Virus record (IMG/VR): IMGVR_UViG_3300032516_000005 | DNA: 64,000 bases | Source of the DNA: a virus | Direction: 5' to 3' (one strand) | Shown: positions 18,055 through 63,746 of the stretch, one piece after another | Layout: every line of letters begins with the position of its first letter | Numbering within the stretch: position 1 is the first letter of the stretch | Notes under the pieces: model-generated | The model's input: only the letters and a program-made list of their open reading frames with translations | Told to the model about the DNA's origin: nothing | Databases searched by the model: none | Made by a program: the position numbers and the translations under genes

Positions 18055-18070
18055 GATCGCGTACGCGATC
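18055..18070. promoter_or_regulatory. GATC-box palindrome
   Basis: GATCGCGTACGCGATC, intergenic. Confidence 0.65.
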
Positions 18071-18100
18071 GACCCCTGTGGTTCTACCTCCACGCTGAAA

Positions 18101-18550
18101 TCATCGGTCTCTAAGCGGGCAGTCTCGGCGGTACAGGTGCTTGATCGTACATACGATCATAGGTACCGTAGTTGCTTCCTCGTCTACCTTTACGGACCGG
18201 CTAGGGGGCAACATGACACTGAAAGTCCAGCGCGAATCTGCGACTCCGAACCTGCTCAAGTACAGCGTCACCCTGACGGTGGTGAGTTTACCCTGAGCCG
18301 CGAAGACCTGATCCGCGACAGCACGCGTGGACCGCTTCGCACGTACGTCGAGCGAGCTGTTCAACTGAAGGATGCGGATGCAGCCTGTCGCTACCTGTTG
18401 TGCAGCGCCTCGATGCGAACGCTGGTGACGCCGCGTTCGTTCGCGCGTGTCGCTGTCGACGCGAGCGCTGAAGGTGCTGCATCGAGCATCGCGTTCAAGA
18501 TCATGGCCGAACCCAACGCAACGGCTATCGTCGCACTCGAATTCCGCCAC
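18101..18550 (-). CDS. Hypothetical basic protein
   Basis: 149-aa ORF downstream of 18566..19117; contains VGFG. Confidence 0.45.
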   Translation of the reverse strand: MAEFECDDSRCVGFGHDLERDARCSTFSARVDSDTRERTRRHQRSHRGAAQQVATGCIRILQLNSSLDVRAKRSTRAVADQVFAAQGKLTTVRVTLYLSRFGVADSRWTFSVMLPPSRSVKVDEEATTVPMIVCTIKHLYRRDCPLRDR

Positions 18551-18565
18551 TCGGTCTCGGCGTAA

Positions 18566-19117
18566 CTAACGCCGTTGATAATGCCGGCCAACGCTGGCAG
18601 ATGACGCGCGACAGCGTTTGGTCAAGCGACCGATGCCGAAGCCGATGCCGGTGAGCACCACGAAGGCACCTGCGCCGACCAGTACAGGATGATCGAGTAC
18701 GAACTGCGCTGCGGGATGCTTGTCGAGGAAGATCGCGGTATCGAGAACAGGCACCAGTTTGCTGATGCCTGAGTCTGTCGACGGCGGCGGCTTGGGTGCA
18801 CCGGGTACGGGTGGTGGCGCCTTGGCCGCTGCAAGCGCCTTCAACGTCTTGAGGCGGTTGACGACTTGCGGCAACGCTGGATCCTTGGCGATCCCCATGA
18901 CCGTGTCCAAGTGCGGGCCAGCCTGGTTGAGGATCCCGACAGCCTTGGTGAGCAACTCCGGACCCTTCGCGAGGATCGTTTGAATGTCTTCAGCGACACC
19001 GCCGAAGCCGGCAGGTGCGTAGAACGGCAACCTGCTCAGCCGGTCTTGCAGATCAGTTTCGGCTTCAGTCGACCAGACACGAGGCAGGGGTGCAGGTTGA
19101 TGAGAGGCGAACAACAC
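18566..19117 (-). CDS. Membrane-anchored protein, Pro-rich linker, AGFG motif
   Basis: C-terminal hydrophobic helix plus basic tail. Confidence 0.7.
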   Translation of the reverse strand: MLFASHQPAPLPRVWSTEAETDLQDRLSRLPFYAPAGFGGVAEDIQTILAKGPELLTKAVGILNQAGPHLDTVMGIAKDPALPQVVNRLKTLKALAAAKAPPPVPGAPKPPPSTDSGISKLVPVLDTAIFLDKHPAAQFVLDHPVLVGAGAFVVLTGIGFGIGRLTKRCRASSASVGRHYQRR

Positions 19118-19134
19118 GTGGTTAGCCTATCACC

Positions 19135-19150
19135 GATCGTGTGCGCGATC
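19135..19150 (-). promoter_or_regulatory. GATC-box with downstream -10
   Basis: GATCGCGCACACGATC-GGTGA-TAGGCT-N6-GTG on the minus strand. Confidence 0.75.
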
Positions 19151-19190
19151 ACCGCTTTCGGTCCATGCAGCACGTAGTAGGGTCGCGGCC

Positions 19191-19769
19191 ATGACGCTCG
19201 AAGCCCTGATCGCCGCCATCATCGCGATGTCATTCAACCTGTCGCCAGAACAGGCACGCATTCACGTCGAGGCCGCTACAGCTGCAGCCGCTGAATACGC
19301 GCTTCCCGTCGAGCTTTTGCTTGGTGTCGCCTACGTCGAGTCACGCTTCGATGAGCGTGCCTTGAGTCGCGTGGAGTGCGCGTCCAAGGATCCGACTAGC
19401 TGCGCACGCAAGACAGGCGTCTGGCCATACGCTACGAAACCGCCGAAGGCGCGTCCCAGTTGGTATTGCGGGCCGTTGCAAAGCGGAGGCTACGTGCCGT
19501 GGGCTGAATGCCAGAAGATGCGCACCGACGTCGCATACGGCTACCGTGCGGGTGCACAAGAGCTGGTGACGTGGATGAACGACAAGCACTGCCAAAGTCT
19601 TGGCGTCGATGACCGACTGCGCTGTGCGCTCGCAGGGCACAGCGCTGGCAACGCAGGCGTTGCAGCGTACCGGACAGTCAAGTACGCCGACTGGGCGCTC
19701 CTTGGGCGTGACCGCGTCGTCAAGTTCGCGAACTACGCTGCACGTAAGGCTCAGCAGCCTGGCAGCTAG
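19191..19769 (+). CDS. SLT-like lytic transglycosylase with N-terminal signal or anchor
   Basis: LLLGVAYVESRFD catalytic Glu motif, GPLQ, ALAGHSAG. Confidence 0.7.
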   Translation: MTLEALIAAIIAMSFNLSPEQARIHVEAATAAAAEYALPVELLLGVAYVESRFDERALSRVECASKDPTSCARKTGVWPYATKPPKARPSWYCGPLQSGGYVPWAECQKMRTDVAYGYRAGAQELVTWMNDKHCQSLGVDDRLRCALAGHSAGNAGVAAYRTVKYADWALLGRDRVVKFANYAARKAQQPGS

Positions 19770-20173
19770 TTCTTGGCGATGGCGCAAGACGGATTGTAGG
19801 TCGAGGCTTGACCCGGTCCGACGATCGAGTGCGGGTCCCAGAACAGCACGTTGATCGTGACGGGCGTGTGCCCGGTGACAACGAACACGACCTTGACAGT
19901 CCCGTCCGCTGGGTCGACGAACGGCTCACCGTGCGTGACGACCGACCACGCTGCGAGCGGCGCCTGCGGGATGACCTGCACGCGCGAAGCAGGAAGGGAT
20001 CCGTCGGGCGGTCCCGGCGGCGCGATCGTGATGCCGAGGGGCGGCTCGTTCGGAGACATGCCCGCGAAGCTCTTGTTGACCTGGGTGAGTCCCGTGTCGA
20101 TCGTCGTGTTGACGCAGTTGGTCAACGTGATGCGTCGCCGATTCCAAAGAAGTGCGCCTGCCTTCGTACCCAT
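19766..20173 (-). CDS. Beta-rich protein, paralogue of 60159..60542 (putative virion protein)
   Basis: KAGALLW...INVLFWxPH.IVGPGQA.TYNP shared. Confidence 0.75.
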   Translation of the reverse strand: MGTKAGALLWNRRRITLTNCVNTTIDTGLTQVNKSFAGMSPNEPPLGITIAPPGPPDGSLPASRVQVIPQAPLAAWSVVTHGEPFVDPADGTVKVVFVVTGHTPVTINVLFWDPHSIVGPGQASTYNPSCAIAKN

Positions 20174-20236
20174 GATGTCCTCCTAGACCGTGACCGGAGT
20201 CGCGAAAATGCGACGAGGTGACATCAAACTACACCC

Positions 20237-20252
20237 GATCGCGCACACGATC
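20237..20252 (-). promoter_or_regulatory. GATC-box with downstream -10
   Basis: GATCGTGTGCGCGATC-GGGTG-TAGTTT. Confidence 0.75.
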
Positions 20253-20269
20253 AACGGGTCGTAGTGGCG

Positions 20270-20716
20270 TTACCAGTCCGAGTCCATCGGGTCGGTTGCG
20301 CGCTTTGGATCACCTGAACGGCGATACAACCAAACACCGCCGGCTGCGAGTACGATGCCCGTTGCGAGTGCGCCGCCGAGGATCATCAAGCCCGCCACGA
20401 GTGGCGTCTGCTTGGCAAAGAAGTCGGGCGCGTCACCGGGCGCGTCACCGAACTGTTGACGTTGGTACGGGATCACTTGCTGCCCGCCATCGGCGACGGT
20501 GTAGTAGTTCGGGTCGCAGTAGTTACAGATGGGCCCCCGCGCGGGATAGCGCCGTCGGTACATGATGGGCGTGCCGCCGGGACCGAACACCGTGGTGGCC
20601 ACGCGGGTCGGACCGATGATCGACTGACTTGGCGCGAGCGGCGAGCCGGCTGGCGGGTACGAGAACGTCGGCATCGCGCTGAGGTCCGGACCTTCGAGTG
20701 TGAAGACATGGGGCAT
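20270..20716 (-). CDS. Membrane-anchored protein with RQQFG motif
   Basis: GAGGAG RBS; C-terminal TM then YRR. Confidence 0.7.
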   Translation of the reverse strand: MPHVFTLEGPDLSAMPTFSYPPAGSPLAPSQSIIGPTRVATTVFGPGGTPIMYRRRYPARGPICNYCDPNYYTVADGGQQVIPYQRQQFGDAPGDAPDFFAKQTPLVAGLMILGGALATGIVLAAGGVWLYRRSGDPKRATDPMDSDW

Positions 20717-20750
20717 TGGGGTCGGCTCCTCGGGTGCTCTAACGTACCAT

Positions 20751-20766
20751 GATCGCGGACGCGATC
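20751..20766 (-). promoter_or_regulatory. GATC-box with downstream -10
   Basis: GATCGCGTCCGCGATC-ATGG-TACGTT. Confidence 0.75.
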
Positions 20767-20767
20767 G

Positions 20768-21346: not shown

Positions 21347-21357
21347 GGTGGACTCCT

Positions 21358-23832
21358 TCAGTGCAACGAGTAGTTGACGATCTCGTTCGGGGCGATCCAG
21401 CACGCGCGACAGCCTTTGCCGTCAGGTCCACCGAGACCCGGCGGGGCAACAGCTTTGCGGCACGTGTGGCCCTTGTCGTCCGTCGCGTACGCCTGGCAGT
21501 TGTGTACGAGGAGCCCGCCTGCAACGAATTCAGGGTTCTCTCCAGCGACTTCCAGATCCCATGTGGGAACGTTGAGCCCGTCATTCACGATTCGCCGAAC
21601 CGCGACAGTCCGCGTACGTGTGCGTTCCGGAACCTGTAACGCAGCGGCGACTGCGCGCTTTTCATCGTTCAGAATTTGGGCTTCCTGTGCGATGCGAAGC
21701 GCGGCAGCACTACGACCGAGAATCGTGATGAGTGTCTTGTGTGGTTCGCGGTGCACTTCCGAGAACGAGCATCGCGCGCCCAGAGAAGACCACAACAACC
21801 CCAGCTCCGTCGCAAGTGCCGGAGAGGTCGTGTACATGCAGACGTCACCACCCCCCTCGCGACGCACCTTCACGGACCCGTCTGCGCTGAGGAATCCTGC
21901 AAGGAACCCGAGCTGTGCACTGCGTGGTGCTTGTAGAAGTCCCGTGGGAAGGCGCCGTGCCGATGAACCAACGCCGTGACCGTAACCAAACGCGTGCAGG
22001 TACCGTGTGAGTTGTGCACTTGACCAGATGGCACGATGCGCGACCCGTTCATGATCAACAAGATCGTTCGCAGCCATCACGCGCTCATCGAAGCGCGCAC
22101 CGTAGCCGATCCACGATTTGATGACGTGGTCGAGCTTTTGGAGATCCATCAACTTTGCGGCACCAACACCGACTTCAACAGAACCGTCAGCGCGAAAATG
22201 TGCATCACCTGCGAAGTAGCCGAGGACGGCCCCGAGATCGCGCGTCCAGTGTTCAGGGAACGTTGCGACGGTCGATGTGCTACCTGCCCCACGACGATCA
22301 AAGGTGCGATCCCATTCCGATACCGCAACAGGTGTTTCGTGTGAAGCACCTGCATCTTCGGGCATAGCGATCAACTTTGTACCCTCGACGAGTTCGCCTG
22401 CTTCAATCCAGTCTTCAGCGCCCGCGAGGCGGTGATCTGGTGTGACACGCAAACGATGCCCGCCAGTTGTTTCGACGACGAGGGTGGCTTTGACACCGCG
22501 AGGTTCAGCACGGACGACGTCGCGCCAACCGTCACGTGTCATAACACTGTCGCCGATCTTGACGTTCTCGATGTTGACGAGCCCTTGCTGTTGCACGTGA
22601 ATTCGCGTGCCTTCGGCAACGCAGTTCCACGTGTAGCGCAGGTCGGGGCCGGTCATCTTCGGCGGGAACCGCTTCGCGCGATCGTAGACGTACTGCTCCA
22701 GCTCGGGTTCCATGCCGAGGTTCTGTTCGACTTGCAGAACCGTCGTCGCACCTGCCCAACCGGGACCGAGATTCTCCGGACCAGCTGCGTTCACTTCGTA
22801 CGCACTTGGACGGATGATCAGGTTGTTGGCGCTGCGCGCGTGCGGCGCATTGATCTCGTTGACAAGATCAATGCCCCAGCTCGTGGCCCAGATCCGCGAC
22901 GGCGCCCAGAACGTGATGTCCGGTAGCCGATCTGCGATCTGCTTCCACTGCTTCAGGTACTTTGGGCTGAAGAAATCTCCTGAGTCATGGATGCGGAAGA
23001 ACCGTCGACCTGTTGGCTCAGGTGGCAGTGGTTGCACCTGTTCGACGATCGTGATCTCACCCGTCTCGGGGTTGGTGATGGCCTGCTCCTCTTTGACGGT
23101 GCCGCCATTGAGCAGGTAGTCGACGTTGTTGATCGCGTAGACCATCGTCTCGATGAACGCGGTTGACCGACTACCGTCAGGTGCAGGTACTTCGAAGTCG
23201 ATCGCCTGACGCGCCCACAGGAAGCGCAGTGTCTGAGCGAACTGGACCTGACCTGTCGAGTACTGCCCGCCGGTCGCGTAGCACTGCTCGCAGATCGCCA
23301 GCGCGAGATTGACGGGCGTGCTCTGCGGACGCTTGAGGCCGATGTTGACCAACCGCGCATTCGCGCTGCGATCTCCGGGCGGTGCGATCGACTGTCCCGC
23401 GATGGCACCGGGGCATGCACCGCCGATCTGGGGCGCGCCTGCGGGGATGCTCCAGCTCGGGGCGTTCATCTTCGATGTCCACGACAGGAGTTTGTACTGT
23501 TGGACGTTGGGATCCGTCGCTGGATTCCATGCGGGACCGGGACCGATTGGCCGATCGAGAACGAGGTAGACGTTCCTGGTGTCCTTGTCCTTGATGTTGC
23601 CAGGGTGCACGGTGAACTGCAGATCCTGCAAGCTCTCGAACACAGCCTCGCGCACGAAGACCAGCCCAAGCAGGCCGGCATGCGCGTCGGAGAGAACAGC
23701 CTGTGGTGCAGGACACGCAGGATGATCTTCACCGAACTCGTCGCCGCTCAACGAGCCGACGCACATGTCGTAAGCGCGCTCGATCGGCGTGACGTCTTCG
23801 GGAACTTCGAGATGTGGAATGATCGCGGCCAT
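21358..23832 (-). CDS. GP88-like Cys-cluster protein containing an intein
   Basis: SKMNAPSWSIPA..CPGA..ICEQCYA..FRIHDSGDF..W..CRACW..Y..H pattern. Confidence 0.75.
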   Translation of the reverse strand: MAAIIPHLEVPEDVTPIERAYDMCVGSLSGDEFGEDHPACPAPQAVLSDAHAGLLGLVFVREAVFESLQDLQFTVHPGNIKDKDTRNVYLVLDRPIGPGPAWNPATDPNVQQYKLLSWTSKMNAPSWSIPAGAPQIGGACPGAIAGQSIAPPGDRSANARLVNIGLKRPQSTPVNLALAICEQCYATGGQYSTGQVQFAQTLRFLWARQAIDFEVPAPDGSRSTAFIETMVYAINNVDYLLNGGTVKEEQAITNPETGEITIVEQVQPLPPEPTGRRFFRIHDSGDFFSPKYLKQWKQIADRLPDITFWAPSRIWATSWGIDLVNEINAPHARSANNLIIRPSAYEVNAAGPENLGPGWAGATTVLQVEQNLGMEPELEQYVYDRAKRFPPKMTGPDLRYTWNCVAEGTRIHVQQQGLVNIENVKIGDSVMTRDGWRDVVRAEPRGVKATLVVETTGGHRLRVTPDHRLAGAEDWIEAGELVEGTKLIAMPEDAGASHETPVAVSEWDRTFDRRGAGSTSTVATFPEHWTRDLGAVLGYFAGDAHFRADGSVEVGVGAAKLMDLQKLDHVIKSWIGYGARFDERVMAANDLVDHERVAHRAIWSSAQLTRYLHAFGYGHGVGSSARRLPTGLLQAPRSAQLGFLAGFLSADGSVKVRREGGGDVCMYTTSPALATELGLLWSSLGARCSFSEVHREPHKTLITILGRSAAALRIAQEAQILNDEKRAVAAALQVPERTRTRTVAVRRIVNDGLNVPTWDLEVAGENPEFVAGGLLVHNCQAYATDDKGHTCRKAVAPPGLGGPDGKGCRACWIAPNEIVNYSLH
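21499..22623 (-). mobile_element. Intein with LAGLIDADG endonuclease (375 aa) in the GP88-like gene
   Basis: TWN|CVAEGTRI, VTPDHR, LGYFAGDA, LAGFLSADG, TWDLEV...LVHN|C. Confidence 0.92.
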
Positions 23833-23834
23833 GA

Positions 23835-24097: not shown

Positions 24098-24592
24098 CTA
24101 GCGACTCCTCTTGCGGCGGCGGCGCCCGATCGCAGCTCCGGCGTCATCGCGCACGCAGTGCATCGTGAACTCGTACGCTGCATCCTTGATCGCCGTTGCG
24201 GGCTTGTAAGCCTTGCCGCCAGCGTGCGTGCTCGCGTCGTACCGCCCGATCGCTTGCTGCATCTCGGCGTAGGACATCTGCGCAGCCGTACAGCGACCGT
24301 TGCGCGCCTTGTTGACAGTGTTCGCCGCGGCGTACTCGATGTCGCGCGATGCCCGTGAAGCCTCGGTGGTGTGTGTAGCTGCAGAGCTGCCGAGGCCGCT
24401 CCGCTTGGCGCTGACCTTGACGATGTTGCGCTCGTCAGCGATGCCCGGTGTCCCGTGCTTGCCACCCATGTTGAGCACCCAGCCACCGTGGCTGGAGCGC
24501 ATCACGGCGCGCCCGGTGCGCTCCTTGCCGAACCGATCGACGATGGTGACACGGTCCCCAGGACGAACGTCGTTGATTGACTTGCGCGCCAT
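24098..24592 (-). CDS. Basic two-domain protein (SH3/KOW-like N-domain, SGLG linker, Arg tail)
   Basis: VRPGDRVTIV; ends AIGRRRRKRSR. Confidence 0.65.
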   Translation of the reverse strand: MARKSINDVRPGDRVTIVDRFGKERTGRAVMRSSHGGWVLNMGGKHGTPGIADERNIVKVSAKRSGLGSSAATHTTEASRASRDIEYAAANTVNKARNGRCTAAQMSYAEMQQAIGRYDASTHAGGKAYKPATAIKDAAYEFTMHCVRDDAGAAIGRRRRKRSR

Positions 24593-24594
24593 GA

Positions 24595-24876
24595 CTAGCG
24601 CTTTCCCTTCCGACGGCAGCGCTTGCCACGACAGCGCTTGCCAAGGCCGCCAGTGCTCCAACACTCGTTGCGATTGCACTCGGCGACGACCTTCTGCATG
24701 CCCGGCAGCCCGTGCGTGACCTTGCAGATCGCGTTCGGGAACTGCTTCGAGCACTTGTGGCCTGCAGCGAGCGCGGCACTTTCTGAGTTATGGAAGCTGC
24801 GCTTCCAGTGCGCGGGACCGCTGACGACGAAGCGATCGGATGAGCCGAGGGACTTCTTGCGACGACGCTTAGCCAT
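24595..24876 (-). CDS. Small very basic protein
   Basis: MAKRRRKKSLG...GGLGKRCRGKRCRRKGKR. Confidence 0.65.
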   Translation of the reverse strand: MAKRRRKKSLGSSDRFVVSGPAHWKRSFHNSESAALAAGHKCSKQFPNAICKVTHGLPGMQKVVAECNRNECWSTGGLGKRCRGKRCRRKGKR

Positions 24877-24878
24877 GA

Positions 24879-25115
24879 TCAGCGGTTCCTCTTCTTGGTG
24901 CTGTTACGACGACGCTTACGTCGTCCAAAGCTCGTGGGACACGCCGTGGGCGTGACAGGTGTCTCGACATCGTGCAGCGGCATCGGCCGCTTGCCACCGG
25001 GGATCAGGATCGTGTGGTGTGCATCGACTTTTCGACGGGTCGCGCGTTTCGCGCCGGCATCGAACGCGAAGCACGCGCCAACAGGCAGGTCTTCGAATGC
25101 GGGACGGCGCGCCAT
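24879..25115 (-). CDS. Small basic protein
   Basis: MARRPAFEDL...SFGRRKRRR. Confidence 0.6.
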   Translation of the reverse strand: MARRPAFEDLPVGACFAFDAGAKRATRRKVDAHHTILIPGGKRPMPLHDVETPVTPTACPTSFGRRKRRRNSTKKRNR

Positions 25116-25117
25116 GG

Positions 25118-25369
25118 CTAGCGCTGCCTCTTCGCGCGCAGCTGACACGAGCTGGCGCGAAGCCGCCAGTCCTTCTTGTACTTGCGCATCAGCGCCGCAC
25201 GCATGTTGTGCTCGGCGCCGGCACAGCCATGCTGCTTCTCAGCGTTGACGTCGACGTAGAGATGCTCGGTGCCTGTGGTCGGCACACGGAGCCCGGCGCG
25301 CCGTAGCTTACGCCCCCACTCGACGACGTTGACGGGTCCGACCCAGACTTTCAGTCGATACGTCGCCAT
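25118..25369 (-). CDS. Small basic protein
   Basis: 83 aa, tight junctions. Confidence 0.6.
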   Translation of the reverse strand: MATYRLKVWVGPVNVVEWGRKLRRAGLRVPTTGTEHLYVDVNAEKQHGCAGAEHNMRAALMRKYKKDWRLRASSCQLRAKRQR

Positions 25370-25621
25370 CTAGCGCCTACGCCGACGTCCCAAGCCCGTG
25401 TTCGGGCAGCTGCACCGACCGGCGATGAAGGTTTCTGCGTCTTTCCGGCCCAGTGCCGTATAGATGCCGTTGCCAGGACCGAAATAGTCCTGCTTGTGCC
25501 GTGTGGGACCGTCGTAGAATCGATAGCGCGTGACGCCGTCACCAGGCGCGTACGTCGCGACGGACAGGCCACACCGATCAGCCTCGGCAGCAAGCGATGA
25601 AGTTTTGCGTTTGGCGGCCAT
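25370..25621 (-). CDS. Small basic protein
   Basis: AAGGA RBS; TYAPGDGVTRYRF; ends TGLGRRRR. Confidence 0.65.
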   Translation of the reverse strand: MAAKRKTSSLAAEADRCGLSVATYAPGDGVTRYRFYDGPTRHKQDYFGPGNGIYTALGRKDAETFIAGRCSCPNTGLGRRRRR

Positions 25622-25652
25622 GCGCGGTTCCTTTGATCACTGGAGTAGGAAG

Positions 25653-25693
25653 CACAAAGGCCACGTACGACGCTATCGCACGTGGCCTCTGTG
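25653..25693 (-). other. Intergenic RNA hairpin, 18-bp stem and 5-nt loop
   Basis: CACAAAGGCCACGTACGA-CGCTA-TCGCACGTGGCCTCTGTG; both mismatches become G-U pairs on the minus strand. Confidence 0.65.
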
Positions 25694-25715
25694 TAGGACT
25701 AGCGCCGAGGAGCGC

Positions 25716-25949
25716 TTAGCGCTTCTTCGCGCGGATCGCGCAGCTCTTGCGACCCTTGGCCCAGCGGTAGCCCTTCTTGAGCCGACCGTTGGCCTTCACG
25801 CCGGCAGCGCTGCAGCCGGTTGCCCGGCCACCGAGCCCGCGGGCCTTGCGACGACGGCGACCCACGAGGGTGGGCAGCTGGCCCATGTGCTTGCGGCGGC
25901 GACGACGCTTACCGAGACCGTCGCCCAGAGTTGGGGTTTCCATGTTCAT
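25716..25949 (-). CDS. Protamine-like very basic protein
   Basis: LGDGLGKRRRRKH...GRRRRK...GRLKKGYRWAKG. Confidence 0.65.
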   Translation of the reverse strand: MNMETPTLGDGLGKRRRRRKHMGQLPTLVGRRRRKARGLGGRATGCSAAGVKANGRLKKGYRWAKGRKSCAIRAKKR

Positions 25950-26014
25950 TCTTCTTTCTGGAGGTTGATCCCTCAAGTCGGCGACGCCTTCTCGACGGGT
26001 GTTTCGCTCAAGAA

Positions 26015-26060
26015 GATCCCACGAGCGATCGCCGACGTCAAGATGATCGCTGCCGCGATC
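26015..26060. promoter_or_regulatory. Tandem GATC-boxes, starts 30 bp apart
   Basis: GATCCCACGAGCGATC (26015-26030) and GATCGCTGCCGCGATC (26045-26060) in a divergent intergenic region. Confidence 0.7.
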
Positions 26061-26121
26061 GTCGTCATGTTGCCATGCACCTAACAACCACGATTGAAGC
26101 TACACTCGCAGCCTTCCAACA

Positions 26122-26835
26122 ATGCCAGCCCTCAAACCACGCGAAAATCCGCGCAAGGTGTTCAAGCACCGGCACCGCGAACGTGGTCCCAGTCGGCTGT
26201 TCACGTTCGATGATCTTGCAGCCGCTGCGACCGAGGCACCCGCAACCACGCGTTCAAAGCTCCGTACGACTACCGATGCTCGCACGGCCGCGCTGTACAT
26301 CACCGAGGCATTGACGCGCCGATCACAGAAGCTCACTGATGACGAAGCTGTCCAAGTCCTCAAGGGGCAGGCGACATTGAAGGAGTGGCGAGGGCGCTGG
26401 CCGCGGTTCGATTTGTACCGCTGCGGTTACCCGAGCTGTCCAGCCACGATGATGGAACCGGGGCTCTGCGCACTTCACGGTGGAACGCTTCAACCGTTCG
26501 CCAAGATCGTCGATGACCACTTCATGATCCTGACTGGCCGTGAGTACACGCCGCTCTGCCGCGTGATCTTCGGTGTCATCGGCTCGGGCGCAGTTGAACA
26601 CGTAGATAAAAACCCGTGGAACAACCATCCGGACAACCTGATCGTGCCTGTAGATGGTCACGTACGTTCATCGCGTCGTAACCGTTGGTCGTACGGATAC
26701 CGCGAGCTGGCGACGCTGTTCGATCTGTCTGAAGACAGTACCCGGCAAGTGGTGTCGCGAGGAATCGTCAACCCAGCATCGCTCGACAGTGTGACGAGCT
26801 TCTGGTGGCTGCGGCAGGACCGTCGACGACTGTGA
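26122..26835 (+). CDS. HNH-like domain protein with flanking HTH-like segments
   Basis: VEHVDKNPWNNHPDNL; CxxxxC...C..H; YGYRELATLFDLSEDSTRQ. Confidence 0.6.
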   Translation: MPALKPRENPRKVFKHRHRERGPSRLFTFDDLAAAATEAPATTRSKLRTTTDARTAALYITEALTRRSQKLTDDEAVQVLKGQATLKEWRGRWPRFDLYRCGYPSCPATMMEPGLCALHGGTLQPFAKIVDDHFMILTGREYTPLCRVIFGVIGSGAVEHVDKNPWNNHPDNLIVPVDGHVRSSRRNRWSYGYRELATLFDLSEDSTRQVVSRGIVNPASLDSVTSFWWLRQDRRRL

Positions 26836-26839
26836 GCCG

Positions 26840-27112
26840 TTAGAGCGGTGTCCGCAGTCGACCGTGACACGCCGGACACACACGAATGGCGCGACCGCCA
26901 CGCTGGATGTACGTGCCTTTTTGTGTCGGCAGCAGGCAGCCACAACCCATGCACAAGATCTTCTCGACTCCGTGACGGTGCGCCATCTCCCAGGAGATGT
27001 GCCACATGCCCGTCAATGACGCTGCGACGAGAGCGTCACGCAGGGTCTTGAGCGTGGTGCCGTCGGCAAAGACGTGGTTATCGTCACGGATGATCACGCG
27101 CGGCATGCTCAT
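26840..27112 (-). CDS. Small Zn-finger protein
   Basis: CMGC...CPAC. Confidence 0.55.
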   Translation of the reverse strand: MSMPRVIIRDDNHVFADGTTLKTLRDALVAASLTGMWHISWEMAHRHGVEKILCMGCGCLLPTQKGTYIQRGGRAIRVCPACHGRLRTPL

Positions 27113-28011
27113 GGCGTCCTCAGGAGGTTTGCATCTGACGTGATCAGAACTGCGGGCCGCAACCCGCGACGCGCGGCAGTGGCGCCGACGACGTGGCGTT
27201 CGCTGATTGGCGTGACACGCGCCCAGGCGTATAGCTCACGAACGCGCTCGTGATCGCTGTTCGAGGCAATGATGATGGCACCGCGGTTGTGTGCTTCGGT
27301 GAGTGCCGCCGCGAGCGCGAAGTGGTCGTCCTCGGTGAACCCGCCGGCTGTGTAGCCGCTGAACGTGTCGTAGTACGGCGAATCGGCGTAGACAACGTCG
27401 CCGGTCTGCGCCGTTGCGATCGTCTCGCGAAAATCAGCCACACGGAGGTCTGCGCGCTTGAGCGCTTGTGAGACGGCCGCGAGTGCGTCCTCATCCGGCA
27501 AGCTCGCGCGCGAGCGGTCACCGCCGTGCGGAACGTTGAACTTGCCGTCACCGTTCTCACGATAGAGGCCGTTGAAGCCAAACTTGTTAAGGTAGAGGAA
27601 CCGCGCAGCCGCAAACACGACGCTGGGAGGCTCCGATGCACGGACCTTCAGGTAGCTTTCCTTGTCAGTGCCGCGATCGACGAGTGTTTGCAGTGCCCAC
27701 GCGACGGCCGCAGGCGTCTTCCGGATCGCCTGGTACATGTTGATCAGCGGCTTGCAAATGTCGCTGAGCAGCATGTTTGACAGCCCGAGGTCGAGCGCGA
27801 TGGCTGCACCACCCAAGAACGGTTCGATGTACCAACCCCCAGTGACGGCAAGCCGTTCATAGATGATCGGCGCCAGCATCGGAACGAGCCAACGCTTGGA
27901 GCCAACCCACTTGAGCGGCGGCGTACAGTGGGCACGTGGCGGCGCCAGCGGCTCGGTGCCGGGCACGACCACCTGTCGCGGGTCGGGCTTCGATTCTTGA
28001 ACGGTCATCAT
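27109..28011 (-). CDS. dam: Dam-like N6-adenine DNA methyltransferase (D12 class)
   Basis: LKWVGSK, EPFLGGAA, FLYLNKFGFNGLYREN...FNVP, DSPY (DPPY variant), SNS. Confidence 0.88.
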   Translation of the reverse strand: MMTVQESKPDPRQVVVPGTEPLAPPRAHCTPPLKWVGSKRWLVPMLAPIIYERLAVTGGWYIEPFLGGAAIALDLGLSNMLLSDICKPLINMYQAIRKTPAAVAWALQTLVDRGTDKESYLKVRASEPPSVVFAAARFLYLNKFGFNGLYRENGDGKFNVPHGGDRSRASLPDEDALAAVSQALKRADLRVADFRETIATAQTGDVVYADSPYYDTFSGYTAGGFTEDDHFALAAALTEAHNRGAIIIASNSDHERVRELYAWARVTPISERHVVGATAARRGLRPAVLITSDANLLRTP

Positions 28012-39545: not shown

Positions 39546-41326
39546 TCCGACTCCATGTCGAGGGTCCACATTGTTCCGTGATAGTCGTTGTCGCCTTCAT
39601 CCTCGTCGGGATGATCGGTAAGTACGGCGTTCGCGAGTGCTGCGAAGTCATCGGCAGTTCCCAGCCCGCCACCAACACCCGTGAAGCCGCTGGCGATGAC
39701 CTCGATCGCGCTCTCAGCCGCTGGGATCCCGAGACGCAATGCGAAGTCACACTTGGTCTGCAACGCTTCGAGGATCTTCCGTTCAATCTCGTGATCGATG
39801 ATCACGTACGTTGCGGCGATCGGTTGCTTGCCGTTGAACGGCCGCATCTCGGCCTGCGCAACGATCGACGGGGTGTAGTCCAGCTCCGCGAAGATCTCCT
39901 GCCGCGCAGCGCTCAGATCGATCCCAACCTGACCGACGGACAGTGTGATGCAAAGCGGCGCTGCAGGATGCGCACGCCACCGATCGAAGATCTCACCGCG
40001 AATGTCAGGGTTGGTGCTGCCCGTGACGACGAAGCCGGGAAAGCCCTGCTTCGCAAGGGCCTCTTCGATCTTGATCGCGATGTCGCGGTGCCAGGTCCAG
40101 ACGATGACACGTTCACCGCCGTCGAGGACACGCTTGGCGACGTCGATAGCGCCGTCTAGCTTGAGCTGCGCGAGCAGGCGCCGGAAGCGCGCCATCGCGC
40201 CGATGGCGGTGCTGCGTACCGCGTGGTCACGGACGCGTTCGGCTTCCTTCTCGACCTTGAACGACTGGCGTTCGGTGATCTGAACGACCTCGACCGTGCG
40301 CTCGATGACGGGCACTTCACCGAGCACGCTCTGCCAGGTGCGGCGCAGCATGATCTCTTGCATGCGCACGCGGAATTCTTCTTCGTTCGAGGCGCCGTCA
40401 GCAACGAACCCATGTGGACCCATGCGGCCGTTCGCGTAGCGGCTCGCGTACTCGAAGTACTTGCCCCACGCGCCGGGGCTGAGGCACGACAACGTCGTGA
40501 ACAAGCCAGCGGGTTTGTTCCACAGCGGTGTGCCGGTCGCGCCGATGACGCGTTCGGCTTGCGCTGCGAGGAACATGGCGGCCTTGCTGCGCCGTGAGCT
40601 TTTGTTCGAGAGGAGATGGATCTCGTCGAAGACCAGCGTGCCGACGCGGCGGTTGCCAAAGTTCTTCCAGCCGGCAAGGATGTCGTAGTTCATGAACACG
40701 AGCTGCGCGTTCTTGAGTGCGCTCTCGTCGAAGAACTCGCCTTCGAGCAGGTCGTAGTTGCGCTCCCGCTTGCGCTTGGGCGCCTTCTTCGGGTCGACGT
40801 ACGCGACGTACTTGCCTTGCAGCACGGTCGGCCGAACGTCCGGCCACCGTCGACGAAACCACCCGAGCCAGACCTCGCGGGTCGCGAGCGGCGCGACGAC
40901 AATCAGTGGACCATCGTTCGGATCGTGCGACGAGACAATTTGGCTCGTTTTCCCTAACCGCATTTGATCCGCAAGCAAAATGCCACGGCGTGCGCGGATG
41001 AACTCACGGCCGGTATGCTGATAGTCCCGGAGTTTCCAACCGTTGGGCTCCGTCGTCGTGTCGAAGGCGTCGCGATCGCTGTTGCGATCACTTTCCAGTC
41101 CCATCCGCGATCCTTGCTGGGACAAAAAAAGCTCGACCTCGGGATGGAGCTTCGCAAGCAACGGCAGATGGGAGCGGTGCACCAGCGGTCCGAACCGCGG
41201 GTCGAGTTGCACCGACGGGGCAGGCGAAACCTCCGGCGTCCATGCCGGAGGGATCGCGTACCAATCGCGTCGTTTTGGGTGTGGCGTTAGGGCTAGCTCA
41301 GCCCGTGGCGCCGTCATCGCTCTCAT
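39542..41326 (-). CDS. SNF2-family helicase
   Basis: LRDYQ, LADQMRLGKT, DEIH, TGTP, QAEMR. Confidence 0.88.
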   Translation of the reverse strand: MRAMTAPRAELALTPHPKRRDWYAIPPAWTPEVSPAPSVQLDPRFGPLVHRSHLPLLAKLHPEVELFLSQQGSRMGLESDRNSDRDAFDTTTEPNGWKLRDYQHTGREFIRARRGILLADQMRLGKTSQIVSSHDPNDGPLIVVAPLATREVWLGWFRRRWPDVRPTVLQGKYVAYVDPKKAPKRKRERNYDLLEGEFFDESALKNAQLVFMNYDILAGWKNFGNRRVGTLVFDEIHLLSNKSSRRSKAAMFLAAQAERVIGATGTPLWNKPAGLFTTLSCLSPGAWGKYFEYASRYANGRMGPHGFVADGASNEEEFRVRMQEIMLRRTWQSVLGEVPVIERTVEVVQITERQSFKVEKEAERVRDHAVRSTAIGAMARFRRLLAQLKLDGAIDVAKRVLDGGERVIVWTWHRDIAIKIEEALAKQGFPGFVVTGSTNPDIRGEIFDRWRAHPAAPLCITLSVGQVGIDLSAARQEIFAELDYTPSIVAQAEMRPFNGKQPIAATYVIIDHEIERKILEALQTKCDFALRLGIPAAESAIEVIASGFTGVGGGLGTADDFAALANAVLTDHPDEDEGDNDYHGTMWTLDMESE

Positions 41327-41829: not shown

Positions 41830-44586
41830 ATGGCGTCCAACAACAACATCATCCCGTTCCCGGGTACCAACGCCAGCACGCCAAGCGCCGCAAACACGTC
41901 AGGTACGGCCGGTTCACCGGGAGGGGCGCCCAGCGCTAGCATCAATGCCGGCGTTCCAGGTGGCGGTAGTGGCGGTGGTGGCGGTAGTGGCGGCAGCGAT
42001 CCGCACGCCTTCACCCGCCAGCAAGTCTGGGTGATCCGCTATCACAAGAAGTACAACGACGATCAGAAGCGCCGGATCCTGCACAACTTCATCGCGACGC
42101 AGGAGAACCGCAAGACAGTCCACGGTGCGTTCCTACGGACGCCTGACAAACGCGCCTATCTACTGGAGGGTCGCGCTTGCAAGCTCTATCGCATCGACGA
42201 GCGCGATCCGGAGTTCTGCGGGTACATGTTGCAGGCTTACGGGCTCAACTCTACCGAGCAGCTCACGAAGCACCTGATCGCGTCGCTCAAGAACTTGACG
42301 ATCGCAGAAGGACTGCATCGTGAAGTGCGCCGATTCTCGTTCTGGGATCGCGGTGGGCGGAAGCTCTACATCTCGCGGTACGACGGCACCTGCTACGAGA
42401 TCGACGGCGATGAGATCACGATCCGCGCAAACGGCTACGGTCCAGCGGTGTTCCTCGACGACGACGGCGGCTACAACTGCGACGTTCCGCAAAAGACTGG
42501 CCCCGAGGTCGGCAACCACCACGAGCTGTTCAAGCGCCTGATCGACGACTTACAATACGTCCCGACGCGTGAGGGCGGCATGTCACCTGACATCCAGAAG
42601 ACCTGCCTGGGGATCTGGATGTTCGCGGTGGCATTCCCGGACCTGATGCCGACGAAGCCGCTACTGTTAGTAGAAGGTGAGATGGGATCTGGCAAATGCC
42701 TAGGTCGTGGCACGCCCGTGCTCATGTTTGACGGGACCGTCAAGCCCGTCGAAGACGTCGTCGTCGGCGAGCAGCTCATGGGCCCGGACTCGAAGCCCCG
42801 GCAAGTCAACAGCGTCACGCGTGGACGTGGCAAGCTCTTCCGCGTCACGCCCGTGAAGGGTGACTCGTGGGTGTGCAACGAGGATCACATCCTTGTGGTA
42901 GGCACCCACCACCGTGAGGGCTACCGCGTCGAGGAAATCACGGTACGTGACTACCTCGCGCATCACGACACGTATCGCGCCAAGACGAAGCAACTGCGCA
43001 CGGGCGTCGAGTTTCCGTCGCAGAAAGTTCCCGTCGAACCGTACTTGCTAGGCCTGTGGCTAGGTGACGGCACCAAGACCGGGCCACAGATCACCAACTG
43101 CGAGCCCGAGATCCATGCGTACTGTACGACTGTTGCGCCACGTTATGGCCTCACGGCGAAGATCGTCGAGACGCCGCGCAACAACAGCTACACGATTTCG
43201 TTGACAGGTAAACAGACGGGTGGTCGCACCCCCAACGTTCTGTGGCAGTACCTCGCGACCTGCGTCGTCGACGATGAGAAGCGGATCCCGGCGCTGTACC
43301 TAACGAACGATCGCCACAAGCGCCTGGAGCTGCTCGCTGGGCTGCTCGACACTGACGGTTACCTGGAGCACGGTTTTTACGAGATCACCACCAAGTACGA
43401 AGGCCTCGCAGAAGACCTGTTGTATTTGGCGCGGAGCCTCGGCTTCGCTGCGTACTGCAGCAAGAAAACCGCGACGATCAAGTCGCTTAACTTTGAGGGT
43501 TTGTACTACCGCGTGACGATCTCGGGTCACGTCAATCAGATTCCCTGCAAGGTTCCGCGACGACAAACTGCACCGCGACAGCAGATCAAGGATGTCCTGC
43601 ACACCGGGTTCACGATCGAACCCGAACCCGAACGTATGGGCAACTACTACGGGTTCACCATCGACGGTGACGGACGGTTCCTCCTCGGGGACTTCACGAT
43701 CACGCACAACACGTTCGCGTTGCAGCGCATCGCGATGACCCTGCACGGCAAGTACACACCGTTGACCGTCCCCAAGAAAGAGGACCCAGACTTCGGCGTG
43801 AAGATCCTGCGGTCGCCAATCGCGATCATCGACGACGTCAACGATCCCGTCGAGTGGCTACGCGACACGCTGTGCACGTACGTCACGGGCGGCAAGTGGT
43901 CGCGCCGCAAGCTATTCAGCGACGACACCGAGCACGTGATCAAGCCCGAGGCGTTCCTCGCGATCACGACGAACAACCCACAGACGTTCCGCCAAGGTCA
44001 GGTTGCTGACCGCTGCTTGATCCTGCGCCTCGAACGTCGTGCCCAGAAGTCGGGCTACACGCCGGCCAACCAGTTGTTCGAGCAGGCAACCTATTGGCGC
44101 CCGGAGCTGCAAGGCGAATGGCTCTACTGGCTCAACGAGATTGTCTGCGAGCTGCGTCGACCGCAGCCAATGACGACGTCGAAGTACCGTATGGCTGACT
44201 TTGCTCACCTGGCGCACCTGATCGGTCGCGTGCTGAACCAGCCTGCAGGGCCGCCCGGTGATTGGACACCCGAGGCGATCGAGGAAATGCTCGGAGCGAT
44301 GCAGGCCGAGCGCGATTCGCTGGTGACCGAGGGCGATCCCATGATCGAACTCATCGACAAGTGGCTTGAGATCACGACGAACGTTGGCCGCGAGATGCGC
44401 ATCGCAGACTTTCACCGCGAGTTGGCGGCGATTGCGAAGGCGCAGAACAACGCGATGTTCTTCAAGTCTCCGAAGGGATTGGCAGCACGGCTCCGCGAAG
44501 CTGGCGGGGCCTTGGCACATCACTTCGAGATCGAACGGCGACAAGGTCCGGGCAACACGATGCTGTACACGTTCCGACGCACGTAG
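41830..44586 (+). CDS. P-loop replicative helicase-like protein with an intein in Walker A
   Basis: GEMGSGK|intein|T, IIDDVN, RRKLFSD, ADR, RMADF. Confidence 0.8.
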   Translation: MASNNNIIPFPGTNASTPSAANTSGTAGSPGGAPSASINAGVPGGGSGGGGGSGGSDPHAFTRQQVWVIRYHKKYNDDQKRRILHNFIATQENRKTVHGAFLRTPDKRAYLLEGRACKLYRIDERDPEFCGYMLQAYGLNSTEQLTKHLIASLKNLTIAEGLHREVRRFSFWDRGGRKLYISRYDGTCYEIDGDEITIRANGYGPAVFLDDDGGYNCDVPQKTGPEVGNHHELFKRLIDDLQYVPTREGGMSPDIQKTCLGIWMFAVAFPDLMPTKPLLLVEGEMGSGKCLGRGTPVLMFDGTVKPVEDVVVGEQLMGPDSKPRQVNSVTRGRGKLFRVTPVKGDSWVCNEDHILVVGTHHREGYRVEEITVRDYLAHHDTYRAKTKQLRTGVEFPSQKVPVEPYLLGLWLGDGTKTGPQITNCEPEIHAYCTTVAPRYGLTAKIVETPRNNSYTISLTGKQTGGRTPNVLWQYLATCVVDDEKRIPALYLTNDRHKRLELLAGLLDTDGYLEHGFYEITTKYEGLAEDLLYLARSLGFAAYCSKKTATIKSLNFEGLYYRVTISGHVNQIPCKVPRRQTAPRQQIKDVLHTGFTIEPEPERMGNYYGFTIDGDGRFLLGDFTITHNTFALQRIAMTLHGKYTPLTVPKKEDPDFGVKILRSPIAIIDDVNDPVEWLRDTLCTYVTGGKWSRRKLFSDDTEHVIKPEAFLAITTNNPQTFRQGQVADRCLILRLERRAQKSGYTPANQLFEQATYWRPELQGEWLYWLNEIVCELRRPQPMTTSKYRMADFAHLAHLIGRVLNQPAGPPGDWTPEAIEEMLGAMQAERDSLVTEGDPMIELIDKWLEITTNVGREMRIADFHRELAAIAKAQNNAMFFKSPKGLAARLREAGGALAHHFEIERRQGPGNTMLYTFRRT
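42697..43710 (+). mobile_element. Intein with LAGLIDADG endonuclease (338 aa)
   Basis: K|CLGRGTPV, CNEDHIL, LGLWLGDG, LAGLLDTDG, YYGFTID...THN|T. Confidence 0.95.
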
Positions 44587-53060: not shown

Positions 53061-53123
53061 CCCAGCGTTGCGTTTCTGTATGAATTGACGCACACTTCAT
53101 GCGTGCCCAAGAACCATCGCGTC

Positions 53124-53327
53124 ATGCAACAGGACGCGCGACTCACGATCCGATTGCCCGGCAAATTGCGTGAGGCGCTTGGGCGGTGGGCTCAAGCTGA
53201 GCAACGCTCGGTGAGCGCACAGGTGCTCAAAGTCCTCGACGACGCTGCAACGAGCGACGCGGCAGTCAAGTCCATCAAGACGTACCGACAACGTCGTGGA
53301 CGGCTCACACCCAAGAAAGCACGATGA
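53124..53327 (+). CDS. Arc-like ribbon-helix-helix protein
   Basis: LTIRLP..L...L...A..E.RSVS. Confidence 0.75.
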   Translation: MQQDARLTIRLPGKLREALGRWAQAEQRSVSAQVLKVLDDAATSDAAVKSIKTYRQRRGRLTPKKAR

Positions 53328-57778: not shown

Positions 57779-57868
57779 AGGGGCCACCCGAGTCTATCAA
57801 TACCCGTACGATCCCGCGACGCGTAGATGTTGAGATCCCGCGCAGGAAACGCTAAAAGCTAGATCATT

Positions 57869-60142: not shown

Positions 60143-60158
60143 CGCTACTTGTTGTGAA

Positions 60159-60542: not shown

Positions 60543-60558
60543 ACCCAGGACAATACAT

Positions 60559-60574
60559 GATCGCGTGCGCGATC
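60559..60574 (-). promoter_or_regulatory. GATC-box with downstream -10
   Basis: GATCGCGCACGCGATC-ATG-TATTGT-N7-ATG. Confidence 0.8.
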
Positions 60575-60698
60575 GTTAGATCAAGCGTCGACGTCTCGCC
60601 GCGGGTGGTATGCGCCGGTCGAGAGCTGTTGGTCGTCGCTCATCGCGGGGTAGCGCGCGTTACGGTTCCTGGCAGCGTGCACGAAGCATGTCGCGATT

Positions 60699-61478: not shown

Positions 61479-61480
61479 GA

Positions 61481-61870
61481 CTAGATGTCGCCTGCTGAAG
61501 TCTTGAACGTTGCGTTGCCAGCTTCCTCGCGACGGAACCGTTCGAGTGTGTTGTATGCGTTCCAGCTGTCAGCCTGGGGCGGCGGGGCAGTCCGGTTGCC
61601 GAGGTAGCTCTGGACGATCTCAGCGAGCGCGCAGCCGCCGATGGCCTTGCCGGCGTTCTTCGCGCGTTGGTAGATCGCGGCCCAGTCCGGCATCTGTCCG
61701 CTGAGCAGCGTCTTGAATTCAGCGATGAGCGATGTGATCTGATCACGGTTCTGGACGGTGCAGTCAACGACCGCACTGATCACGATGGGACCCGGACCTG
61801 GTCCGGGGCAGCCGAGTTGGGGCGCACCGAGACCGAGAGCGAAGACGAGGACGATCAGGAAACGCTTCAT
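61481..61870 (-). CDS. Putative lipoprotein or secreted protein
   Basis: MKR + hydrophobic stretch + QLGC, PGPGPGP. Confidence 0.65.
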   Translation of the reverse strand: MKRFLIVLVFALGLGAPQLGCPGPGPGPIVISAVVDCTVQNRDQITSLIAEFKTLLSGQMPDWAAIYQRAKNAGKAIGGCALAEIVQSYLGNRTAPPPQADSWNAYNTLERFRREEAGNATFKTSAGDI

Positions 61871-61888
61871 GCGCCCGAGCGTATCATC

Positions 61889-61904
61889 GATCGCGGACGC
61901 GATC
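61889..61904 (-). promoter_or_regulatory. GATC-box with downstream -10
   Basis: GATCGCGTCCGCGATC-GATGA-TACGCT-N7-ATG. Confidence 0.8.
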
Positions 61905-61934
61905 GACGTGATCAGTTACGATGGGTTGCTGTGA

Positions 61935-62738
61935 TCATCGTCGTGCTCTTCGTCGTCGCTGTTGCGCTTCTGCTCGCCGCCGCAAAGGGCCTGGAGCGCT
62001 GAGCTGCGTCGTCGCGTGACGTCCGAAGAAGTACCAGAGTACGCCGGCTGAAGCGATTGCCGTTCCGGTCATCGCGACGAGCGGCACCACGAATGCCGGC
62101 AACGGTTTCTTGACGGGTGTGACGACGGCCGGACCGATTTCGATGCCAGGTCCTCGTGCGCCGATCCGCTTCAGGGCTGCGACCGCGGCATTGAGCACGA
62201 AGACGTCGTTCTGCACCAAAGGATCAGCGAGAACGCGGAGTGTTGTGGTCGCTTCGGTGCGGATGTTGTCTGCCGTCGTGTTTGAGATCAGCTGCGCCAT
62301 CCCGTTGATGAGCTGAACCAGCACGCTACCGTCGGTTTCTGCGCGTGCTGCCGTCGACATCTGCAGAATCGCTGCATCAGGGCTAAGCGCACCGACCTCG
62401 GCGAGCTTCTGTGCAGCGATGCGGCGTACCTCAGCTTCGTTGCGATCGATGCCGCCTGCCATGCCCATGGCGCGCCAGCCCAGGAGCTTCCGTGCGATGT
62501 CGAACAACAGGCGATTGTCGCCGTCATCGAGGAACGAGAGCTTTTCGATGTTGCGGAGGACAGCGAGCGGTTCGTTGCCGATCACGGTGCTCGTGCAGAA
62601 CAGGTTGTTGCTGGCCCCACCGTCATCGTTTGTGAAGCCGTTGTTGGCCTGCAGGCGCAAGCAACGTTCGACGCGCGTGTTCAGGTCAACCAGTTCTGTG
62701 CTGGCTGCGCCGAATCCGGTATGCGTCGTGAACAGCAT
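61935..62738 (-). CDS. Membrane-anchored protein with MLFTTHTGFG leader
   Basis: C-terminal TM and Arg tail; TAGATG junction. Confidence 0.7.
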   Translation of the reverse strand: MLFTTHTGFGAASTELVDLNTRVERCLRLQANNGFTNDDGGASNNLFCTSTVIGNEPLAVLRNIEKLSFLDDGDNRLLFDIARKLLGWRAMGMAGGIDRNEAEVRRIAAQKLAEVGALSPDAAILQMSTAARAETDGSVLVQLINGMAQLISNTTADNIRTEATTTLRVLADPLVQNDVFVLNAAVAALKRIGARGPGIEIGPAVVTPVKKPLPAFVVPLVAMTGTAIASAGVLWYFFGRHATTQLSAPGPLRRRAEAQQRRRRARR

Positions 62739-63683
62739 CTAGTAACCGCTCTCTTCGCTTTCGTCGCTCTCGCTGGAAGATGTGTGCGTGCGTGCGTAGG
62801 CGCGCGGGAGCCTGGATGATCCACCGCGTTGGTTGCGATACAGGTAGTACCCAGCCGTGCCCGCGACGCCGAGCACTGCAAGCACGCCGATCACGGTGAA
62901 GATGCTGCGGTTGGATGTGCCGGGTACGTTGGTGCTGGGACGACCCGCCTGGACGTCAGGGAACTTGTTCAGCGCGAGTTCAGCGCACTTGAACCGGACG
63001 TCAGCGTCATCGCTGTTGGCGCCGATGCACGAATCGAGGAGGCCCTTCAGCGTCCGTTCGTCAGACTCGACCTCGGCTTGACGTGCAAGCGCAGCAGCTG
63101 TTGCAGCTTGATTCGCCGCGATGTCCGCAGCAGCTTGCGTCTTGCCGAAGACCGAGATGATCACGGCACCTGTGATTGCGACCACTGAGATGATGAAGAT
63201 CGCGACAAGCACGGGCGGGAGACCCAGACCGTTGGCGTAGTAGTACGGTGCGTACTCACCCAACGTGATTCGACGAGGCTTGCCGACAGGGCCAACGATG
63301 AGCCTGATCGCGCCGGGATTGAACGTGCTACCGAATCCGTTGGCAGCCAAGTCGCTCGGATCGAACGCAGGCACGGACTCGGGCACGGCGTCAGGATCGG
63401 GCAACTGGTCACGGGGCACGCCAGCGCGCGCGATCAACCAGAAGTTGGCCGCTTCTGTGTAGGCCACTTGCGCGGCGTTGTAGCGCTGCAGCATCGACTT
63501 CAGCGCCGCAGGTGCAGGCTTCCCCGCGTCCTTGAACGCCGTCAGGATGAAAACGTATCGCCCGAAGCTGTTGCGCAGCGACGTCTCTGCTACCGCGAGT
63601 GACTGGCCGCGCGCGGTCAGCGAAGGAAGCTGCGCCTGCTCCGGTGGGGCGCCGAAGCCGGCTGATGTCGTCGCGATAAGCAT
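62739..63683 (-). CDS. Two-TM protein with MLIATTSAGFG leader
   Basis: Two hydrophobic helices; AGFG, NGFG, NGLG motifs. Confidence 0.7.
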   Translation of the reverse strand: MLIATTSAGFGAPPEQAQLPSLTARGQSLAVAETSLRNSFGRYVFILTAFKDAGKPAPAALKSMLQRYNAAQVAYTEAANFWLIARAGVPRDQLPDPDAVPESVPAFDPSDLAANGFGSTFNPGAIRLIVGPVGKPRRITLGEYAPYYYANGLGLPPVLVAIFIISVVAITGAVIISVFGKTQAAADIAANQAATAAALARQAEVESDERTLKGLLDSCIGANSDDADVRFKCAELALNKFPDVQAGRPSTNVPGTSNRSIFTVIGVLAVLGVAGTAGYYLYRNQRGGSSRLPRAYARTHTSSSESDESEESGY

Positions 63684-63700
63684 GCGGACATTCAACCATT

Positions 63701-63746
63701 GATCGCTGACACGATCAAGGTAACCGACTCGATCGCGCACGCGATC
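63701..63746 (-). promoter_or_regulatory. Tandem GATC-boxes, starts 30 bp apart
   Basis: GATCGCTGACACGATC (63701-63716) and GATCGCGCACGCGATC (63731-63746); on the minus strand followed by AATGG-TTGAAT-N6-ATG. Confidence 0.75.

Follow-up and report, generated by a model that had tools for sequence, protein, structure and literature searches.

The window analysed here is the whole 64,000-nucleotide stretch of IMG/VR virus record IMGVR_UViG_3300032516_000005, which encodes a DNA polymerase A, a ribonucleotide reductase, helicases, a primase, a Dam-like methylase and a C39 peptidase. Its subject is a palindrome of 16 base pairs (bp), hereafter the box, which the original prediction had placed at ten positions (18055, 19135, 20237, 20751, 26015, 26045, 60559, 61889, 63701 and 63731) and had taken for the site of a dimeric viral activator, or repressor, of late genes. 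All ten 16-mers are present there, and the six hexamers described next to them (five TAnnnT and one TTGAAT) read as described on the minus strand. Matches to GATCGCGNNCGCGATC with at most one mismatch number 11 in the window, against 0.16 expected. As GATC itself is in 3-fold excess genome-wide, we applied stricter nulls (order-3 and order-5 Markov); these predict 0.08–0.12 intergenic copies with at most two mismatches and both GATC intact, and nine were seen. With a matrix derived from relatives only, the ten best intergenic matches in the window are the ten listed sites; the top 14 matches are these ten and four coding copies (1247, 2615, 4029 and 16727), and the ratio of intergenic to coding rates is 32. 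The expected intergenic enrichment was thus recovered, and chance or GATC richness as the origin of the box is ruled out by the Markov nulls, with reversed-pattern controls giving 0–1. Five weaker intergenic copies had not been listed (18143, 8099, 12145, 8043 and 12070), four of them at early promoters.

We found no close cultured phage for this virus and, in the literature searched, no description of the box or of the virus group. Its relatives in IMG/VR are 65–221 kilobases long and about 70% identical in DNA. The first of these were picked by a pattern requiring a -10 at one site per contig, and the box lists of G002–G005 were made afterwards from the box alone. Box counts were 44 in G001, 21 in G002, 13 in G003, 30 in G004, 10 in G005 and 9 in G008, with 0–1 in the reversed-pattern controls; in G006, where the capsid gene is present, the count is one. 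Boxes recur at orthologous promoters, as had been anticipated for related contigs: they lie upstream in orthologues of the genes behind 19135, 20237, 20751, 26015, 61889, 63701 and 63731, and never upstream of the orthologues of the DNA polymerase gene. The palindromic box is therefore real and conserved. A further virus, Rctr197k, was rejected as a relative, since it carries a terminase-like gene, a head gene and one box. In the close relatives G007 and G010 (loci L085 and L084), most boxes have decayed and the -35, extended -10 and -10 elements are kept, so that these loci provide a ready-made contrast for judging whether control is positive or negative. The capsid operon begins with a box promoter in G001 and G008. 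A 249-amino-acid (aa) protein from a box-headed operon of the relatives has 438 homologues, and the top structural matches of its model are jelly-roll capsid proteins, with Sulfolobus polyhedral virus 1 first (Z 6.4, root-mean-square deviation 5.5, 129 aligned; a middling Z). Judged from this capsid-like fold, the virus is likely a large tailless virus of the single-jelly-roll type.

Most boxes in the window belong to recognizable promoters. On the minus strand, the box is followed after 5 nucleotides (nt) by an extended -10 TAGGCT at 19124–19150, ahead of a leaderless GTG at 19117 that opens a 183-aa membrane protein; after 4 nt by an extended -10 TACGTT at 20741–20766, heading a 148-aa membrane protein (20270–20716); after 3 nt by TATTGT at 60550–60574, with a leaderless ATG at 60542; and after 5 nt (9 nt in the G004 orthologue) by an extended -10 TACGCT at 61878–61904, with a leaderless ATG at 61870 of a lipoprotein-like product. 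At 20226–20254 (minus), a TTGATC -35 overlaps the box and is followed at spacer 17 by TAGTTT, heading a 135-aa gene (19766–20173). The same arrangement at 63690–63718 (minus) ends in TTGAAT, which we read as the -10 because an ATG follows 6 nt later; this leaderless ATG (63683) begins a 314-aa membrane protein. Back-to-back with it, at 63731–63757 (plus), the box stands 5 nt before TACCGT and a leaderless ATG at 63764, whose gene (63764–63889, plus) ends after 41 codons; homologues in relatives have 180–200 aa. A perfect box at 18055–18070 has no adjacent -10, and relatives have an extra gene here. The weaker box at 18143–18169 (plus) comes with a TTGATC -35, spacer 17 and a -10 TACCGT, and heads the gene at 18213–18565 (plus); this gene, about 120 aa in relatives, goes out of frame here after about 25 codons owing to a deletion of 7 nt, either a loss or an assembly error. 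The doubled sites had been noted for their identical 30-bp spacing. As a design feature this did not hold: 63701 and 63731 are back-to-back promoters, and the orthologous pair in G001 is 44 bp apart, so the shared 30 bp is a coincidence. Tandem operators at a 30-bp pitch were likewise rejected for 63701/63731, and the other pair is spaced 30–48 across loci.

Across the box sets, a TAnnnT hexamer lies 3–5 nt past the box in 53 of 217 flanks, compared with about one per position elsewhere and a small second group at 9–10 nt. Roughly half of the boxes stand 3–6 nt ahead of such a hexamer. In an enlarged set of 65 of these main-class promoters, the distance was 3, 4, 5 and 6 nt in 9, 20, 29 and 7 cases, respectively, and a start codon followed 6–7 nt past the hexamer in 34/65, the signature of leaderless transcripts. 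This start codon was used in place of start-site mapping; with it as the anchor, the box would lie at about -33 to -17, centred near -25. A TTG-type hexamer at spacer 17 was present in 14/65 and an extended -10 in 37/65, and the two never occurred together (0/65). Nearly always the TTG-type -35 is TTGATC, in which two T in front of the box are joined to its left end, and the TT before the box is invariant across eleven aligned orthologous and paralogous promoters. The claim that no consensus -35 is evident needs correcting: a -35 is mostly absent, but 20237, 63701 and 18143 have TTGATC at spacer 17 and the promoter at 26041 has TTGACG. Downstream of the TTGATC-type promoters (20176–20216, minus; L001, L031, L033, L021 and L053), the leaders share a CCTC start, a hairpin of variable sequence but kept pairing (single-sequence folds) and a small CCGG/ACGG hairpin ahead of the ribosome site; they possibly form a translational control element.

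The layout has its closest precedent in phage P1, whose Lpa protein binds a 9-bp dyad around -22 and activates late promoters (PMC3152322, PMC10695390). Checking the P1 sequence, we found that the dyad precedes the -10 by 4 nt at five late promoters and by 9 nt at the annotated LPhot, with no -35. As with Lpa (and host SspA), many scattered morphogenesis promoters here carry a dyad shortly before a host-type -10, and no viral polymerase was found. There are clear differences: the dyad is unrelated and has 16 bp rather than 9, its spacing is 3–6 nt and not mostly 4 (rarely 9–10), copies number 30–44 as opposed to 11, many starts are leaderless, and boxes also lie over the -10 and behind start sites. 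In addition, 78% of promoters here keep a -35 or an extended -10, while among the five clear P1 sites none has a -35 and one has an extended -10. No Lpa homologue was detected in any of seven relatives (the P1 control was found; some contigs are incomplete), nor did the candidate regulator described below match its profile. Membership in the Lpa system was rejected given the different sequence and the missing homologue, and the box would instead be a second, unrelated case of a P1-type late promoter layout.

It is highly probable that the box serves as an operator for some transcription factor. The box could in principle act as a DNA structure (a hairpin that serves a viral polymerase as promoter), or else as a site for packaging or for organising the nucleoid, and the perfect dyad with its short loop and the genome-wide spread of copies would suit this. 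Such a role is nonetheless hardly probable, considering how firmly the box is tied to sigma-70 elements and leaderless starts, loop bases that vary freely and copies that avoid the replication block. Neither a multisubunit polymerase gene (Rpb2-type) nor sigma region 2 was found in the near-complete relatives, and sigma matches were limited to weak region-4-like helix-turn-helix (HTH) ones; a search for a single-subunit (T7-type) polymerase gene, made without a positive control, also found none.

Membrane anchors are over-represented among the first genes behind main-class promoters (15/46 vs 50/456, p=2e-4, a value that overstates independence, as do the other p-values, since the promoter counts take in orthologues). 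These first genes show no enrichment for basic proteins (1/46) or for the xG motif. Of the downstream classes originally proposed (membrane, basic or virion-like), the membrane class is thus borne out and the basic class is not. Together with the capsid operon, this supports a conserved role of the box in the promoters of a virion-gene regulon, and the type of gene suggests late expression. Many box-linked proteins have FG or LG motifs at module borders and Arg-rich tails (20270–20716, 24098–25949 and 61935–63683), and a membrane-anchored C39 peptidase (16658–17257, minus) could process them. The peptidase gene itself has a box-less leaderless promoter here; in G001 a box precedes its -10 by 14 nt. 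As the structural genes match almost no family, the box provides a ready marker for listing the virion transcription units of this lineage.

A second group of boxes sits at strong promoters. At 26013–26041 (minus), a leftward promoter (TTGACG, spacer 17, TGn, GATCTT) serves a basic-protein operon running down from 25949, and the box at 26015–26030 covers its spacer, extended -10 and most of its -10. The second box (26045–26060) lies 3 nt upstream of TTGACG and 40 nt upstream of a rightward -10 (TACACT, 26101–26106). The leftward promoter (TTGACG, spacer 17–18, TGn, GAT(C/T)(G/T)T) is kept in 15/15 homologous loci, even where the boxes have decayed. Both boxes are kept in 13/15, the most distant full-length homologues included, and the second box is 3–21 nt upstream of the leftward -35 across loci. 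The leader of this operon also has a conserved block (25960–25995) just ahead of the ribosome site. In G002 and G004, TTGACA promoters with a box at +4/+5 precede two orthologous pairs of membrane-anchored genes. Boxes over a -10, or at +1 to +5 behind strong promoters, are by their placement apparent repressor positions.

Early operons had been described as using plain promoters, which fits 13977 and 41395, where no box copies were found, but not two other places. First, an early promoter (TTGACA, spacer 17, TAATCT; 8092–8064) within 8043–8114 (minus) lies between weak boxes at 8099–8114 (upstream) and 8043–8058 (about +1), which score 8.1 and 7.4 bits, compared with 3.0 for the best 130-nt coding stretch tested. 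Second, two weak boxes in 12070–12160, between divergent early genes (one ending at 11991, the other starting at 12230), lie upstream of GAAT-N16/17-CGTCT promoters; the 12145 copy, which precedes the GAAT-type promoter for gene 12230 by 21–26 nt, is kept in G001 and G003.

The rightward gene at the double box, 26122–26835 (plus), encodes a candidate regulator of 237 aa, with an N-terminal helical HTH-like part, a Cys/His and HNH_3-like core and a C-terminal MerR/Xis-like winged HTH. It is 53–85% conserved among 28 homologues, and the double box precedes it in 13/15 loci. The last 50 residues of the protein define a small HTH family, also found alone or in repeats, with weak matches to sigma region 4 and HTH_17 models and structural alignments to MerR, Xis and BldC domains at a middling Z of 3.2–3.7. 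We consider its product a plausible candidate for the box binder, somewhat short of an even chance. A co-variation test (other HTH, other box) gave no decision, because distant homologues of the candidate keep the same box. Of the other candidates, a ribbon-helix-helix gene (53103–53327) had no match in the relatives in a search without a positive control, and a Fis-like HTH and a Cys-rich protein, common to the core relatives, were not clearly found in G005 or G008. A co-opted host transcription factor would explain why divergent relatives without the candidate gene use the same box, and why the box sequence hardly drifts across the lineage. We regard it as very unlikely: the combination of box, -10 and leaderless ATG gave 23 single scattered matches in 185,579 species genomes and never two per record (an indirect measure).

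Our favoured reading, held tentatively, is a dual switch. The palindrome would be the operator of one virus-encoded DNA-binding protein that acts on a host sigma-70-type polymerase and, once bound, switches the virus to particle production. At main-class promoters, with the box ending 3–6 nt before the -10, the protein would assist promoter opening where the polymerase has only a single auxiliary sigma contact, in the manner of P1 Lpa; at strong promoters, with the box over the -10 or at +1 to +5, it would block the polymerase. Weak virion promoters would thereby be activated and strong ones shut. This reading is supported by the P1 precedent, the sharply peaked distances and the weak boxes seen at early promoters, by the double box kept beside the HTH gene in 13/15 loci with no viral sigma region 2 or multisubunit polymerase found, and by the lack of any main-class promoter with both a TTG -35 and an extended -10. 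A small viral factor working with host polymerase is also known from P2 Ogr, Mu C and phi29 p4, and phi29 p4 also represses early promoters. The box differs from the first two in being centred near -25, as the Ogr site is near -55 and that of Mu C at -30 to -55 (PMC3152322). MerR family regulators likewise combine a long palindrome between -35 and -10 with repression and activation by one protein. Unlike them, the spacer here is 17 where a -35 exists, the MerR/Xis-like winged HTH of the candidate (a low match, Z 3.3–3.7) is C-terminal, and its model shows no coiled-coil or ligand domain. MerR-type promoters are defined by a 19–20-bp spacer (PMC9909328), a geometry we rejected, with mean -35 consensus matches of 1.6 and 1.35 of 6 at spacers 19 and 20.

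Several observations weigh against the dual switch. A TTG-type -35 or an extended -10 is kept by 51/65 main-class promoters, and the 14 with neither helper have a better -10 (3.86 vs 3.1–3.3 of 6, p=1e-4), so an additional sigma contact survives at every main-class promoter. Among leaderless promoters, those without a box lack a -35 just as frequently as those with one (3/30 vs 3/34), and a missing -35 alone therefore does not imply an activator. Box spacing is looser than in P1, and the 5-nt distance at 61889 is 9 nt at the orthologous promoter of G004. The candidate gene, or its HTH alone, is absent from box-bearing G005 and G008, including beside the Dam gene (both contigs may be incomplete; G005 has no capsid gene and probably is), where the boxes have the same promoter geometry; G007 and G010 keep the candidate gene at 71%, with decayed boxes. 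Finally, the genes behind blocking positions are equally virion-like (a membrane anchor and Arg tail, or basic proteins). An activator that also blocks would shut them when they are seemingly needed, and the dual switch would have to tolerate late shutdown of some virion-like genes. In sum, the proposal of a dimeric viral activator (or repressor) of late genes was right about a promoter element, for which a dyad-reading regulator is natural, but the activator sign is not established, since 51/65 promoters keep helper elements, box-less promoters look alike, and boxes also lie over -10 elements and behind starts.

The next most probable reading, possible though on balance doubtful, is a pure repressor: one protein would hold competent virion promoters off, during the early phase of infection or in a lysogenic or carrier state, until replication titrates it over the 30–44 sites or it is inactivated, with 26015/26045 as a lambda-like switch in which the repressor gene diverges from the sandwiched promoter. 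A single sign would then fit every position (over the -35; over the -10 of a promoter conserved in 15/15 loci; +4/+5 behind TTGACA), and the retained sigma contacts and the tolerated shift from 5 to 9 nt would be expected. Tyrosine recombinases, present in 5/5 near-complete relatives, also suit a repressor; one or two such genes occur in each of G001, G004, G005, G006, G007 and G008. Multi-site repressors exist; the stoperators of cluster A mycobacteriophages number 20–30 sites, asymmetric 13–14-mers that are bound by a monomer and lie mostly off promoters (PMC6550527). Like these and the P1 C1 operators, the box may pair one viral protein with tens of genome-wide sites; unlike them, it is symmetric and promoter-locked at virion genes. 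Its best sites are at structural rather than early genes, which is not the pattern of known immunity repressors, the necessary release mechanism was not found, the sharp 3–6 nt peak mirrors the P1 activator layout, and 14/65 promoters have neither helper element. Unlikely, in our estimate, is the fuller version in which the whole virion programme is negatively controlled through 30–44 operators by a domesticated HNH/HTH repressor, released by replication titration or a change in Dam methylation. If true, it would contradict the rule, stated for all well-studied phages, that late genes are expressed under positive control (PMC10695390). Because the same site occupies activator-like and repressor-like positions, the box allows an inexpensive and clear-cut test of whether positive control is obligatory for late genes. 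On either sign, the box is real, conserved and apparently undescribed, in an uncharacterised virus lineage.

Each box carries two GATC, and a Dam-like adenine methyltransferase gene (27109–28011, minus) adjoins the candidate regulator; its product retains the segments that read GATC, with DSPY taken as motif IV. The pairing of GATC with such a gene recalls Dam-dependent switches of the pap, agn43 and Mu mom type. A methylation timer, compatible with either sign, would have the viral Dam mark the GATC ends and the binder read their state, tying late expression to replication. The ends are indeed the least variable part of the box (0/69 changes at positions 1–4 and 7 at 13–16, compared with 17–18 at positions 7 and 10), but invariant half-site ends are expected of any operator and one GATC is missing at some conserved promoters. 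In 7/8 loci motif IV reads DSPY, which leaves methylase activity only putative, and G006 has the Dam gene with a box count of one. We therefore consider the timer improbable.

The remaining observations concern other parts of the window. A box and a weak box stand in tandem, 7 nt apart, at 41074–41112 in the N-terminal coding part of a SNF2-like helicase, by a T8 run, and the arrangement also occurs in G004 (L056). A second promoter class at 9290, 11993 and 12182 (GAAT-N16/17-CGT(C/T)T, with a conserved upstream extension) is shared with G001 and G003 and resembles promoters of extracytoplasmic function (ECF) sigma factors. A GP88-family gene has a LAGLIDADG-domain intein, which is missing in the relatives (loci 21358–23832, minus, and 41830–44586, plus); the 918-aa protein also matches intein-bearing helicases, which probably accounts for its terminase matches. 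Lastly, the transposase gene at 15069–16097 (plus) belongs to the IS1595 family and is about 61% identical to ISAcr1 (Acidiphilium copies).

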